Shown piece after piece: positions 3,201 through 19,961 of a DNA stretch of 64,000 nt (positions are counted from its first letter, which is position 1; each line of letters begins with the position of its first letter). Origin of the DNA: an uncultured Clostridia bacterium. Lineage in GTDB: Bacteria; Bacillota; Clostridia; Christensenellales; CAMQZB01. A model generated the notes under the pieces. It ran no database searches. It was given only the letters and a program-made list of their open reading frames with translations, and was not told the origin of the DNA. Location: contig CAMQZB010000002.1 of the NCBI GenBank assembly GCA_947039455.1, forward strand, positions 97,393-161,392, given 5' to 3'. The translations under genes were made by a program, and so were the position numbers.

Positions 3201-4578
3201 CCGCGTAGGCGCAACATGGGTTCCAGTGAAGAACTATCAAGAGTTCATGGAAGAAACATTCAAGCCAAATAGCTATGCTAAAGATGTAATAAAAGTACAG
3301 TACAGCAAAAACACATCACAATGGAATATAACTAGAAAAACAGCAGATTTAGACAACATAACAGCCACGAGCAAATACGGAACCAAGCGAAGCAACGGTT
3401 ATAAATTATTTGAAGAAAGTCTGAATTTACGTGAAGCAAGAGTGTATATGACTAAGTACGATCATGACGGCAAAGAGGTACGAGTTGTAGATAAAGAAGA
3501 AACTTCCATAGCGGTAAGCAAACAAGCATTAATTGCTGAAACTTTCAAAGATTGGGTGTGGAAAGACCCCACAAGGCGTGAACAGTTGGTTCGACTCTAC
3601 AATGATAATTACAACAACATAAGACCGCGTGAGTACCACGGTGGCGATTTAGCCTTTGTAGGTATGAACAATGAAATAACTTTAAAACCACATCAAAAAG
3701 ACGCAGTAGCTCACATTTTATATGGTGGAAATACTTTGCTAGCTCACGTTGTCGGAAGTGGTAAAACTTTCGAAATGGTTGCTGCAGCACAAGAATCAAA
3801 ACGGTTAGGATTATGCAACAAATCATTGTTTGTAGTGCCAAATCATTTGACGGAACAGTGGGCAGGTGAATACATGCAACTGTATCCATCAGCAAATATA
3901 TTAGTTGCAACAAAGAAAGATTTTGAAACAAAAAACAGAAAGAAATTCGTAAGCAGAATAGCCACAGGCGATTACGATGCAGTGATTATTGGGCATACGC
4001 AATTTGAAAAAATACCTATGTCAATCGAAAGACAAGAAATAGAATTAAATCGCCAAAAGAATGAAGTCCTAACTGGTATTGCTGAATTGAAAAGTAATAA
4101 CGGCGAAAGATTTTCAATCAAAGCAATGGAACGAACAAGAAAAGGAATTGAAGCAAAACTAAAGAAACTGAATGATGCAAGCCGAAAGGACGATGTGATT
4201 ACCTTTGAAGAATTAGGAGTAGATAGACTTTTTGTAGACGAAGCACATTACTATAAAAACTGTGCGATATTCACAAAAATGCGAAACGTTGGCGGAATAG
4301 CACAAACGGAAGCCCAAAAGTCTAGCGACCTATTTATGAAGTGTCGATACCTTGACGAAGTCACTGGAGGTCGCGGAATTATTTTCGCAACAGGAACTCC
4401 AATTTCCAACTCAATGGTAGAAATGTACACAATGCAAAGATACTTGCAATACGGAAAACTACAAGAAAAAGGATTAAACCACTTCGACAACTGGGCAAGT
4501 ACATTTGGAGAAACTCAAACCACAATAGAACTAGCGCCGGAAGGTGTAGAGTATGAAGGAGGATTGTTACTTTTATGA
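196..4578 (+). pseudogene. 5' part (codons 1-1449) of an interrupted ~2085-codon polyvalent protein: ArdC-N-like domain, N6-adenine DNA methyltransferase and SNF2/DEAD helicase N-lobe. After ...LAPEG it reads 11 foreign codons and stops at TGA.
   Basis: Motifs seen: YQQQLLIYNQ..WKNHFKRYVKKGAKGI (ArdC-N-like); EPSCGIGNF and GNVPFGD (MTase motifs I and IV); LLAHVVGSGKTF and LFVDEAHYYKN (helicase motifs I and II). The helicase C-lobe is absent here and is found at 18045-19961. Confidence 0.85.
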
Positions 4579-4778
4579 GTGATAATAACAACAATAATAA
4601 TGAAATGATAGCACAAAACGCGAGTGTGAACAAGGCAAAGACCTACAAAATAGGTAATACTTGGTATACAGTAACGGTGCATTTTAGCAAGACGAGCAAA
4701 GAGGTTTTAGAAGATAAAATCAAAAGGCTTATCAAAAATGATGATGAACTCATTGATAATGACCCTCAAAATAAATAG
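4575..4778 (+). CDS. TnpW-like small transposon protein
   Basis: The 67-aa sequence contains YTVTVHFSKTSKEVLEDKIKRLIKND, which matches the TnpW-family signature as I recall it (V.VHFS.TSKE...DKI.RLI.N). RBS AAGGAGG at 4556-4562. It lies directly upstream of the serine recombinase. Confidence 0.6.
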   Translation: MSDNNNNNNEMIAQNASVNKAKTYKIGNTWYTVTVHFSKTSKEVLEDKIKRLIKNDDELIDNDPQNK

Positions 4779-4820
4779 TGGGCAGAGAATGTATATTGTC
4801 TGCCAAAAGGGAGTAATATT

Positions 4821-6743
4821 ATGGCAAGACAAGCTAACGAGAAAATTACTGCACTGTATTGTAGGTTATCGAGAGATGATGAAGTTCAAGGTGATAGTAA
4901 TAGTATTGTAAATCAAAGAATGATTTTAGAAAAATACGCAAAAGACAATGGGTTTAGAAATGTGCAAGTATTTGTAGATGATGGTTATTCTGGAGCGAAC
5001 TTTGAAAGACCTGATTGGAAAAGAATGATTCAAGAGGTTGAGCAAGGTAACGTAGGAATAGTAATCGCTAAAGACTTATCAAGAATAGGTAGGGATTATT
5101 TGCGTGTTGGCATGTACACGGAAATCGTATTTAAAGAGAAGAAAATACGGTTTATCGCAATAGGTAATGATATCGATAGTGACAAGCAAGGTGGTGACGA
5201 TTTTACCCCATTTATAAACATATTGAACGAGTTTCAAGTGAGAGATACAAGTCGTAAAATTCGTCACGTATTTAGGGTTAGAGGACTGGAGGGCAAACAC
5301 GTTTCAGGAAGTACGCCATATGGCTATTTTCGCGACCCAAATAATAAAGGGAAGTGGATAGTTGATGAAATAGCAGCTGATGTTATAAGGCGAATATTTA
5401 AGCTCTTGATTGAGGGGAATGGTGTATATCAAATTGCAAAAATTTTGTCTAACGATAAAGTATTGATACCTTCAGCACATTGGGCTAGTATAAAATCTGA
5501 AAACTTGCGAAAGAAAAATTTTTATAGTCCATACGCATGGGGTGGTACTTCTGTAGGTAAAATTATTTCAAAGGAAGAGTATATGGGGCATACGGTTTCT
5601 TTTAAAACTCATACTGTTTCGTATAAAGTAAGGAGATCCGTAGCCACACCAAAAGAAGAAAGAATGATTTTTGAGAACACTCATGAAGCAATTATAGATA
5701 GTGAAACATGGCACAACGCTCAAAGGCTGAGAAAAACTGTACGTAGACCGTCAAAATGCGGTGAATTAAGTAGATTAACTGGATTGTTATATTGTGCTGA
5801 ATGCGGAAGTAAATTAACTCATAATAGAGGAATAAAAGGCAGAGGTGATTTGACTAGAAAAGATGACTTTTGTTGCTCACAGTATAGAAGTATTTCACGT
5901 AATTGTTCTATGCACCATATAAGAAGTAGTATTGTTGAAGAACTTATCTTAAAGGCATTAAAAGATGTAACTAATTATGTAAAAAATAATAAGTCAGAGT
6001 TTGTGAAAATGATATCATCTAATTCGTCAATACAACATGAAAATGTTATGAAAAAGCAAAGAAATAAACTTGCATCGTATAGAAAAAGATTTAATGAATT
6101 GGACTATTTACTAAAGAAAATTTATGAAGATAACGTATCAACAAAATTGTCTGATAAGATGTTTGATAAACTGTCTAAAGACTATGAAAAGGAACAATAC
6201 AAAATAGAAGATGAAATTTCAATACTTGAGAGCGAATTGGAGCAAGCTGAATCTAAAGTTGCCAATACGGACAAGTTTTTAGCACTTGTTGAACGATATA
6301 CCGATTTCACGGAATTAACAACGTCAATGCTAAATGAGTTTGTAGAGAAAATTGTAGTACATGAACGAGTTAGGGGATATAGATATAAAGTATCTCAAGA
6401 GATAGAAATACATTTCAATTTCATAGGCAAGCTAGAGTTGTCAATGCCTAGTGATGAATGTGATGAAATCGAAGAAAGAAAAGTGTCTACATGCTCGCAA
6501 AAACGATATAAACCTGTAATGGCTTTCATGAATGCTCAAACGGAATCGAATTTGAAATTAACCTTTAAAGAAATTGAAAAAGCAATTGGAATGAAGCTCA
6601 CTCCAAGTGCGTATAAGTATCGCAATACTTGGTATGCAAGTGGCAATAGACCGATAGCTAATATAATCTATAATGCAGGATACGATGTGAAGAAATTAGA
6701 TTTAAAAAATGAAACAATAGAACTTTATAAACAGCTAGAGTGA
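4821..6743 (+). CDS. Large serine recombinase (TnpX/TndX-type) with an extra small C-terminal domain
   Basis: N-terminal resolvase catalytic motif [21 protein letters not shown]; recombinase domain; Cys-rich ribbon CAECGSKL...CCSQYR...C; coiled-coil region. The C-terminal [26 protein letters not shown] segment is additional. Confidence 0.9.
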
Positions 6744-17963: not shown

Positions 17964-17999
17964 AACACCTATTGATTTTTTATCGATAGGTGTTTTTTC
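17964..17999 (+). terminator. Rho-independent terminator downstream of the array
   Basis: AACACCTATTGAT-TTTTT-ATCGATAGGTGTT followed by TTTTT. Confidence 0.6.
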
Positions 18000-18044
18000 A
18001 TGCCCAAAATCAGAAAACATCACAAGTATCCTTGACAAACAGTT

Positions 18045-19961
18045 CCTGAAGGCACATCCTATCGCAGCAAAACCCGCTTCAATAAATTCTATAATTTACC
18101 TGAATTAATGAGCATATTTAAAGAGGTTGCGGACATCAAAACAGCGGACATGTTAGACTTGCCAGTGCCAAAAGCTAACTTTCATACCATTGCTGTAAAA
18201 CCTACTGAAGTACAACGAGAGTTCGTTATGAACTGTGCGGATAGAGCTGAAGCGGTGAGAGATAGGTCAGTAGATAGCACCGTTGACAACATGTTGAAAA
18301 TTACAAACGATGGACGGAAAATCGCATTAGACCCAAGATTAATAAATCCACTTCTTGAAGATGAAAAAGTAACGAAAGTTAATGCTTGTGTCAATAATGT
18401 ATTCAACATTTGGAAAGATGGAACTACTCCAGAAAATAATGAAGATCCAACCAATCAAACCCAATTAGTATTTTGCGATATGTCAACACCAAAAACTGAT
18501 GGCACGTTCAATGTCTATGATGATATTAGAGAAAAATTAGTTAAAAAAGGTATGCAAAAAGAGCAAATAGCTTTCATTCACGAAGCTAAAACCGATATTC
18601 AAAAAGACAAACTATTTGCAAAAATGAAACGTGGCGAAATTCGAGTATTACTTGGTTCAACGCAAAAAATGGGTGCAGGAACTAATGTTCAAGAGCGATT
18701 AAAAGCAATTCACCACCTAGACTGTCCATGGAGACCAAGTGATTTAGAGCAGCGGAATGGACGAGTAATAAGACAAGGCAATTTGAATAAAGAAGTTGAT
18801 GTATATAACTATGTAACCAGTGAAACATTTGATGCGTATTTATATCAACTAGTAGAAAATAAGCAAAAATTCATATCTCAAATCATGTCAAGCAAAGCGA
18901 TAGTGAGAAGTGCGGAAGATATAGACGAGACAGCGTTATCATATGCTGAAATCAAAATGTTGGCAACAGGAAATCCCTACATAAAAGAAAAAATGGATCT
19001 AGATATTCAAGTTGCAAGATTGAAATTACTAAAGAGCAATTACCAAAACGAGATTTATCAACTACAAGATTTTATCTATAAAGATTACCCAACTCAATTA
19101 GCTGATGTGTTATCCAAAATAGACACAACTGAAAAAGATGTAGCAATTCAAATGACACACCCAGAGAAAATAAGTGACAAGAATTTCACTAATATGAATG
19201 TAATGGGTAAAGTGCATTACGACAAAGAAATGGCAGGTCGAGCCTTGCTTGAGAGTATGAAAGGCGTTGGGATTGATGAAAAAGAAGTAGGTGAGTATCG
19301 TGGGTTTAAGCTAATAGCGAATTACTCAATTTTCGAAAGCAAAACGAAACTAACAATCAAAAACAACGGACGGCGTACTATCGATATGGGCATTGACGTG
19401 TTCGGTAATATCCAAAGAATTGATAATGCAATTAATAACATTCCACTAAGATTAAATACATATAAAGAAGTCCTTACAGAGCTTGAAAACCAACTAGAGG
19501 TAGCAAAAGTAGAAGTTGAAAAAACATTCGATAAAGATGATGAATTAAATACAAAACTAGCAAGATTGAAAGAGCTTGACTCTCTATTAAATTTAGATAA
19601 AAGCACAGCGAAACAAGAAACTGAAGATCAACAAAACGCAAATGAAAGCAACGGAATAATCGAAACAACGCTATTTAGTTCGCATTGTGTATTTGACAAC
19701 GAAGCGCGAAACGCTAAGCTAATGCAAATGCCAAGTGATAGTGAATATGGCGACTATTGTTATTATCTTGAAAATTCTCTGATAGTAAGTGAAATTGATG
19801 GAGAAATCAATATAAAAGCAGATATAAGTAGTTCGATAAAGATATTCAACGATAAAACAGTTAAGAATATATCAATAATTGATTTTGTAAGACAGCAAGA
19901 AAATCGAATAAACCAAAGTGCGGAAAAAATCCGTAGTAATGAATTAGAAATAGCAATTTAA
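18045..19961 (+). pseudogene. 3' part of the interrupted polyvalent protein (helicase C-lobe and C-terminal tail)
   Basis: The frame reads PEGTSYRSKTRFNKFYNLPELMSIFKEVADIK..., then VFCDMSTPK, LLGSTQKMGAGTNVQ and HLDCPWRPSDLEQRNGRVIRQGN (helicase motifs IV-VI). It is in frame with 196-4544 once 4545-18052 is removed. Confidence 0.85.

Follow-up and report, generated by a model that had tools for sequence, protein, structure and literature searches.

A stretch of 64,000 nt from a metagenome scaffold of an uncultured Clostridia bacterium (contig CAMQZB010000002.1 of assembly GCA_947039455.1, 97,393–161,392; hereafter the window) contains a complete type II-A CRISPR–Cas9 system (CRISPR, clustered and regularly interspaced short palindromic repeats) within 13,508 bp of inserted DNA, which occupies positions 4545–18052 and splits the snf2 gene of a conjugative element. 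Its sequence, read beside those of related loci, makes it very probable that the insertion is a site-specific integrative and mobilizable element (IME), whose large serine recombinase (LSR) targets the motif CCNGARGG in snf2 and which carries its own MobV relaxase, with the type II-A system as cargo. Lying on the + strand between the two snf2 halves, and bounded by ends conserved in related elements, it runs from an attachment (att) site through tnpW, the recombinase gene, a helix-turn-helix (HTH) gene and mob to the cargo (order W-X-HTH-Mob-cargo). A preliminary description of this DNA had taken the insertion for a Tn4451-like mobilizable transposon carrying CRISPR–Cas9 inside a conjugative element; every gene it listed, and the array, are found where it placed them, both in our open reading frame (ORF) map and in the Pfam and NCBIfam profile scans of window ORFs by which protein families are called here. 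That interpretation is partly supported: it is right in anatomy and likely mechanism, and the element is to be reclassified from a Tn4451-like transposon to a site-specific, snf2-targeting IME.

The interrupted gene encodes an SNF2/Eco57I-type methylase-helicase (snf2/COG4646). Its N-terminal part (196–4544, +; 1450 codons, with the Pfam domains Eco57I, SNF2-rel_dom and ResIII) and its C-terminal part (18053–19961, +; 635 codons, with Helicase_C) rejoin into a single 2085-codon frame without a stop, and a 5-bp repeat, GAAGG, stands at both the left (4540–4544) and the right (18048–18052) junction, bearing out the earlier claim of a 13.5-kb insertion into a conjugative-element gene. By sequence and by alignment of family junctions, the left copy, which lies within the Pro-Glu-Gly codons of the target, is the crossover core of attL; beyond it the truncated snf2 frame stays open as far as 4578, gaining 11 C-terminal residues from the element's own sequence. 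The preliminary description had allowed that homologues of this gene might always be split at this point. Instead, a 264-aa query spanning the junction has a contiguous match in all of the best 80 GTDB loci (66–73% identity), and a 500-aa junction-spanning query is fully covered by all of the best 120 proteins of a 5.8-billion-cluster collection (at most 71% identity), so the gene is normally intact; lower-ranking interrupted alleles fall outside such lists. At the insertion site, CCNGARGG (Pro-Glu-Gly) is present in 80 of the 80 intact GTDB alleles.

On the same scaffold, ParA, a MobL relaxase and a VirD4-type coupling protein (T4CP, type IV coupling protein) are encoded upstream of the insertion, and a YoeB/YefM pair, a pilin-like protein and a VirB4-type ATPase downstream of it. 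Judged by these genes (MobL, T4CP, VirB4 and pilin), the element that hosts the insertion is conjugative, and because its relaxase is a MobL it may lie outside the Tn5252 superfamily. Since the source is a metagenome scaffold, and the G+C content of the cas region (0.28–0.30) is slightly below that of the flanking snf2 sequence (0.35–0.38), one might suspect an assembly chimaera that brings together an IME, a CRISPR locus and an integrative and conjugative element (ICE) from different genomes. Such an artefact is extremely improbable, however: the snf2 halves rejoin in frame at the 5-bp repeat, the right arm conserved across the element family lies beyond the array, and the same arrangement recurs on four contigs.

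The recombinase and its relatives point to a single, well-defined target. The 640-aa LSR (4821–6743, +) has a TnpX-like domain set, comprising Resolvase, Recombinase, Zn_ribbon_recom, DUF4368 (PF14287) and DUF7662, and keeps, as its relatives do, the motif SRIGRDY and the nucleophile motif YxRLSRDDE (here YCRLSRDDE). Its closest relatives readable in context form four groups, with identities of 64% (on another contig from the window's metagenome), 62% (in a Eubacteriales metagenome-assembled genome), 58% (in Paenibacillus macerans) and 57%. In all four the LSR gene is preceded by tnpW, which in the window occupies 4575–4778 (+; PF14202, E 3e-13), and before that by a snf2 fragment that stops at residue 1452–1456, in the numbering of the window's joined protein, whose own junction falls at residue 1450. 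On the two contigs that hold both ends of an element, snf2 resumes at residue 1447 (locus L311) and 1445 (L314).

The ends themselves are also conserved. Across the family, left ends read ...CCGGAAGG up to the boundary and TGTAGAG...GGAGG from it onward (in TGTAGAG and TGTAAGC variants), while right ends read CCTTGACAAAC..CC.GA(A/G)GG up to the boundary; the window's right-end arm, CCTTGACAAACAGTTCCTGAAGG (18030–18052, +), has TTGACA 15 nt from the crossover and closes with the attR core at 18048–18052. Searching GTDB genomes for the right-end motif, with tblastn of the flanks against snf2, yielded 13 sites, of which 10 continue into snf2 sequence: nine by tblastn (start residue 1445–1447) and one, L330, by flank reading only. 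These junctions occur in Paenibacillus, Cohnella, Oscillospiraceae, Lachnospiraceae and Family XIII, and the snf2 genes that host relatives are only 54–63% identical to that of the window. Four LSR groups and ten motif-defined junctions at the same snf2 codon argue for a family that is site-specific for this one codon and has inserted there independently, rather than for chance insertion of a promiscuous transposon. As for the crossover dinucleotide, the final GG of GAAGG is favoured both by positions at which attL and attR differ in L314 and by the target in L308. More distant LSR relatives (51–54% identity; L321 and L322) lie between the halves of TrbL_2 genes of ICEs, and L322 has a pair of such tnpW–LSR elements inside 7 kb. 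The metagenome of the window also holds a second related element (L307; scaffold_1455, 5152–10501), with an LSR 64% identical to the window's, at the same codon of another snf2 gene (55% identical); its contig ends just past the LSR gene.

These junctions bear directly on the origin first proposed, in which a low-specificity mobilizable transposon of the Tn4451/Tn4453 family would have come to lie in snf2 by accident. In protein domains the likeness stands: the window IME and Tn4451/Tn4453 have in common a TnpX-type LSR with DUF4368, a TnpW and a Mob_Pre relaxase, as well as very short end repeats and, possibly, a promoter across the circular joint, where the recombinase promoter of Tn4451 is assembled. 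The GA end dinucleotides of Tn4451 can likewise be read within GAAGG, but the family alignment favours a crossover at GG. Other features separate the two. Tn4451/Tn4453 (C. perfringens / C. difficile) have the order X-V-cargo-Y-Z-W, whereas the window IME has W-X-HTH-Mob-cargo with its att site upstream of tnpW, a difference in both order and att position. Neither TnpV (no Pfam match) nor TnpY (for which no reference-sequence search was made) was detected in the window IME, unlike in Tn4451/Tn4453. For protein comparisons, two Tn4451-type elements on enterobacterial plasmids stood in for Tn4451, the true reference being absent from the plasmid collection; the window relaxase, which shares 25% identity with the Mob_Pre relaxase from one such element, is not orthologous to that type, and the LSR is ~37–38% identical to TndX and to Tn4451-type proteins in plasmid records. 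Tn4451 is described as being of low target specificity, and its TnpX is sufficient without a recombination directionality factor (PMC5704250); the window family, in contrast, is specific for one snf2 codon, reached in genes only 54–63% identical. A chance landing by a Tn4451-type transposon is accordingly very improbable. Of the backbone first assigned to Tn4451/Tn4453, the protein families (TnpW, DUF4368-type LSR, Mob_Pre) hold, and the gene order, att position, relaxase orthology and low specificity do not.

Behind the recombinase gene follow an HTH_36 protein (6754–7434, +; Pfam) and the mobilization module. The MobV (Mob_Pre) relaxase (7766–8959, +; PF01076, E 4e-15, with the NCBIfam MobV profile scoring below its cutoff) contains HLHMDEATPHLHIDFVP and the motifs HNAR (HxxR) and HLHMDEATPHLH (HxDE...PHxH). 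Its nearest relatives, at 41–48% identity, are Mob proteins from small MOBV plasmids of clostridia; with the Mob_Pre relaxases that two related LSR elements encode it shares only 22–25% identity. Three inverted repeats directly 5' of mob (7655–7745, +), a region that includes a 13-nt motif, GCAAAAGCACTTT, also present ahead of mob in two MOBV plasmids, mark a candidate origin of transfer (oriT). No Pfam match to genes of a type IV secretion system (T4SS) or mating pore was found among the tested ORFs of 4545–18052. Within the HTH_36 frame, at 7075–7138, lie three iteron-like palindromic units (GTGACAAAAATGTCAC, period 22–24), which may act as an operator or as an origin of replication. Between mob and the CRISPR–Cas9 system are genes for an XRE-type HTH regulator (9015–9260, −; Pfam HTH_26 and HTH_3) and a YpsA/SLOG protein (DprA-like, former DUF1273; 9421–9960, +; Pfam), the latter flanked, according to a promoter and terminator scan, by a promoter-like site (9346–9374) and a terminator-like hairpin (10001–10034). 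There is a weak match (E 8e-7) between the YpsA/SLOG protein and ShosA, from the Shosta defence system; a ShosT-like partner was not seen.

The cargo is a full type II-A set of tracrRNA (trans-activating CRISPR RNA), cas9, cas1, cas2, csn2 and a repeat-spacer array. Cas9 (10271–14305, +; 1344 aa; Pfam; TIGR01865, 907 bits) keeps the RuvC residues D8 (in GLDIGT), E771 (IEMAR), and H985 and D988 (HHANDAY), as well as the HNH histidine H853 (DIDHI). It is followed by cas1 (14290–15171, +; PF01867), cas2 (15161–15481, +; PF09827) and the type II-A signature gene csn2 (15478–16152, +; PF09711; TIGR01866, E 1e-45). A putative promoter, TTGACA-17-TATAAA (16121–16149, +), and a putative 68-bp leader (16153–16220, +) precede the array (16221–17906, +), which comprises 26 repeats of 36 nt and 25 spacers of 29–31 nt; 24 of the 26 repeats are identical, repeat 17 has one G-to-A change and the last is degenerate. 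Rfam holds no family matching the tracrRNA (10110–10229, −), which we defined from its anti-repeat, promoter and terminator. Upstream of cas9, at 10200–10223 on the + strand, 24 nt of the repeat recur; the promoter, TTGACT-17-TATAAT (10264–10236, −), matches at 11 of 12 positions and has a TG; and three hairpins come after the anti-repeat, of which the third is the terminator with its U-run (10136–10118, −), for an RNA of ~120 nt. The predicted duplex of tracrRNA and repeat has an energy of −45.5 kcal/mol, against −11.9 ± 2.8 for shuffled sequences. As the preliminary description had it, the system is complete and looks functional. Among GTDB genomes, JGI metagenomes and the 5.8-billion-cluster collection, the nearest relative of this Cas9 is 47% identical, placing it, by sequence, in a distant lineage.

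We considered, and rejected, a placement of the CRISPR locus beyond the limits of the element. Between the end of the array and the right junction there are 146 bp, and the family-conserved right arm comes beyond the array, which thus lies inside the att-delimited insert; with MobL, T4CP, VirB4 and pilin genes around the insertion, this upholds the earlier view of a CRISPR system carried as cargo and nested in a conjugative element.

Taken together, the anatomy suggests a life cycle in which the LSR would recombine a site on the element's circular form with codons for Pro-Glu-Gly (CCNGARGG) that are invariant in the snf2/COG4646 gene of Firmicutes conjugative elements, with the crossover falling inside GAAGG. 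In the integrated state no good −35 element stands ahead of tnpW, and the tnpW start codon overlaps the TGA stop of the truncated snf2 frame (ATGA). Because tnpW and the LSR gene lack a good promoter of their own and tnpW begins on that stop codon, both are probably read through from the transfer operon of the host element. Excision would alter this arrangement: in the circle, TTGACA from the right end (18032–18037), a hexamer kept in every true family right end, would be brought to 17 nt upstream of the left-end TAGAGT (4547–4552), just before tnpW and the recombinase gene. The circle may then be nicked by the MobV relaxase at the candidate oriT upstream of mob and leave through a T4SS supplied by the host element or by a different conjugative element, while passive travel inside the host element is also possible. 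In any recipient, spacer acquisition and interference by the cargo would confer adaptive immunity.

Several observations weigh against this account. The junction promoter has a weak predicted −10 element, with four of six matches in the window and three of six in L311, and we therefore treat that promoter as hypothetical; the basis for the oriT consists of the inverted repeats and the one shared 13-nt motif. The exact recombinase occurs on only four contigs, in identical context, and an exact look-up confined a neighbouring ICE protein to the same four. The collections contain neither a second location nor a circular junction of the element. Two of the checks first envisaged came back empty: there is no empty-site copy of the present conjugative element in the collections, the nearest intact allele being 71% identical, and the 13.5-kb unit was not found at other loci or in other hosts, its Cas9 having relatives of 47% identity at most. 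No cas genes are present in any LSR relative with downstream sequence (the contigs of L307 and L308, the two closest, stop just past the LSR or Mob gene, before the cargo), and, in the three collections searched for Cas9, none of its relatives is linked to an LSR or a Mob protein. Spacers matched nothing in phage and plasmid records, searched with the whole array, nor in IMG/VR viral contigs, searched with S1–S3 of the 25. All 25 spacers were also compared with the window and ~4 Mb of other loci, with neither matches nor self-targets.

The best-studied streptococcal snf2 IME did not excise under laboratory conditions (PMC7168690), which makes a passive, ICE-borne state the main rival to an active IME. 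The insertion would then be a decayed remnant, no longer autonomous, that moves passively with the conjugative element (cis-mobilization), and its CRISPR system would in effect be ICE cargo. The single known context on four contigs fits this picture, as does the failure to find an empty site or a circle; IME_SsuNSUI084_SNF2, the element without laboratory excision, has many decayed relatives in S. suis (PMC7168690), and a remnant of this kind occurs in L224, from Sporofaciens musculi. Against a remnant, the backbone reading frames of the window element are all full length, the LSR and relaxase motifs are kept, and both ends fit the family consensus. We consider a remnant unlikely, and prefer a site-specific IME that retains its own means of integration and mobilization.

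Cargo varies among the relatives. The CRISPR–Cas9 system of the window occupies the cargo slot of the family, between backbone and right arm; L311 carries an MCP (methyl-accepting chemotaxis protein) chemoreceptor and L314 a GerA germination operon, and L308 has a MobA/MobL relaxase module. The sequence 5' of the right end in L329 (826–7256) encodes a YhcG/PDC-S02 nuclease, a TIR-like protein, NYN and E2+E1, and that 5' of the right end in L331 (1100–6236) a PD-T4-6-type kinase, a GmrSD_N+HNH type II restriction enzyme and an EcoRI-type methylase. We tentatively raise the possibility, which is open to considerable doubt, that the tnpW–LSR lineage is a dedicated ‘plug-in’ shuttle, bringing interchangeable defence cassettes to one site in conjugative elements, with integration and excision switching the methylase-helicase off and on, and with Cas9 serving the partnership of IME and ICE, not the chromosome. 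The cassettes counted as defence in this proposal are the CRISPR–Cas9 system of the window, the E1/E2–NYN–YhcG set of L329, and the restriction enzyme, methylase and kinase of L331; were it true, Cas9 would act against rival mobile elements or against phages of new recipients. Separately, one TnpW match, in L098, lies 9 kb from a Cas9.

The host element has further genes downstream of the IME. Its YoeB/YefM toxin–antitoxin pair lies at 21167–21671 (−), and a protein with an NrS-1 polymerase helix-bundle domain (32317–33291) and a radical SAM protein (35772–36602) are also encoded. An Ltp-type surface lipoprotein (37155–38111, −), with three Ltp repeats arising from a 150-bp tandem repeat in 2.8 copies (37164–37580), may provide an exclusion function for the conjugative element. 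A chloramphenicol acetyltransferase gene (38340–38981, −; PF00302, E 7e-70), the type of cargo borne by Tn4451, is located ~20 kb downstream of the IME and outside it, on the host replicon. Elsewhere in the window, a type I restriction–modification locus (44406–51464, +) has two overlapping hsdM genes (44406–45902 and 45802–47394), followed by hsdS (47369–48562) and hsdR (48564–51464).

That IMEs nest in ICE genes, and that defence systems ride on mobile elements, is already known in general. For the movement of complete CRISPR–Cas systems between genomes, however, phylogeny is the usual line of inference; in this window a full Cas9 system, with its adaptation genes, is enclosed in a 13.5-kb unit with an integrase, a relaxase and definable att sites, and the vehicle is therefore directly testable. 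The window also yields a distant Cas9, only 47% identical to its nearest relative, together with its tracrRNA, and a widespread recombinase lineage with conserved ends and a short invariant target (CCNGARGG in snf2) that could serve as a site-specific integrase.

Among known elements, the closest in kind are well-described IMEs of streptococci, which combine a serine integrase with a PF01076 relaxase and interrupt snf2/COG4646 in ICEs of the Tn5252 or Tn1549 type (PMC5357655, PMC5704250, PMC7168690, PMC9815147). Examples are grouped as IME_Class_6 and include IME_SsuNSUI084_SNF2, IME_SsuT15_SNF2 and the tet(O) fragment of ICESp2905 (PMC5357655, PMC7168690, PMC9815147); the streptococcal snf2 IMEs measure 11–13.5 kb, contain TnpV and carry tet(O) or erm(B) as cargo (PMC5357655, PMC5704250, PMC7168690, PMC9815147). 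The window IME resembles IME_Class_6 in its serine integrase and PF01076/MOBV relaxase, its comparable size and its position inside the snf2 gene of a conjugative element, with the same nested, ‘matryoshka’ architecture. It differs in carrying CRISPR–Cas9 in place of antibiotic resistance and in giving no Pfam match to TnpV. Moreover, the integrase gene of IME_Class_6 abuts the att site with its 3' end, whereas tnpW and the LSR gene of the window stand at the left end and read inward, and the 11-bp inverted repeat that flanks S. suis members, TTTTGCGGACA (PMC9815147), is absent from the window IME ends, the window having one chance-level match to it, at 1347. Assignment to IME_Class_6 in the sense of Coluzzi et al. 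2017 also calls for an integrase of the Ser_3 family (at least 40% identity to streptococcal integrases); L224, the sole element of streptococcal layout compared, gives LSR identities of 27–43% to the window. In L224, a remnant of a different LSR (5099–7429) abuts a C-terminal snf2 fragment that starts at residue 1445, and 4 kb from this remnant lies a 6.3-kb, Tn4451-sized LSR...TnpW element (10001–16322). Because the L224 LSR is only 27–43% identical to the window's and yet abuts snf2 at residue 1445, the comparison suggests that two recombinase lineages use nearly the same snf2 spot. The insertion is better labelled an IME belonging to the already catalogued class whose target is snf2 in ICEs of Firmicutes (PMC5357655, PMC7168690, PMC9815147).

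As to the cargo, CampyICE1, an ICE of Campylobacter, has a degenerate type II-C system with Cas9 only and no cas1 or cas2 (PMC8743540); it shares with the window a Cas9-based system on a conjugative-type mobile element, but its II-C system sits directly on the ICE, whereas the window has a full II-A system, adaptation module included, on a separate, nested IME. One CRISPR system is recorded on a Faecalibacterium IME (PMC12084326), which is similar in placing CRISPR–Cas cargo on a small integrative element that needs transfer machinery from elsewhere. A paper on a lactococcal ICE was set aside as a precedent for Cas9 cargo, Cas9 being there only a laboratory tool. Staphylococcal cassette chromosome (SCC) elements offer another parallel: SCCmec cassettes with type III-A CRISPR exist, and SCC elements use large serine recombinases and target the chromosomal gene orfX/rlmH. 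They resemble the window IME in having CRISPR–Cas cargo, large serine recombinases and transfer by other machinery, but they target orfX/rlmH and, to our knowledge, lack a relaxase, whereas the window IME targets snf2 and has MobV. Our search of the open-access literature turned up no snf2-targeting IME reported to carry a complete II-A system; the LSR lineage and the Cas9 cargo appear to be new, borne by a vehicle of a known kind.

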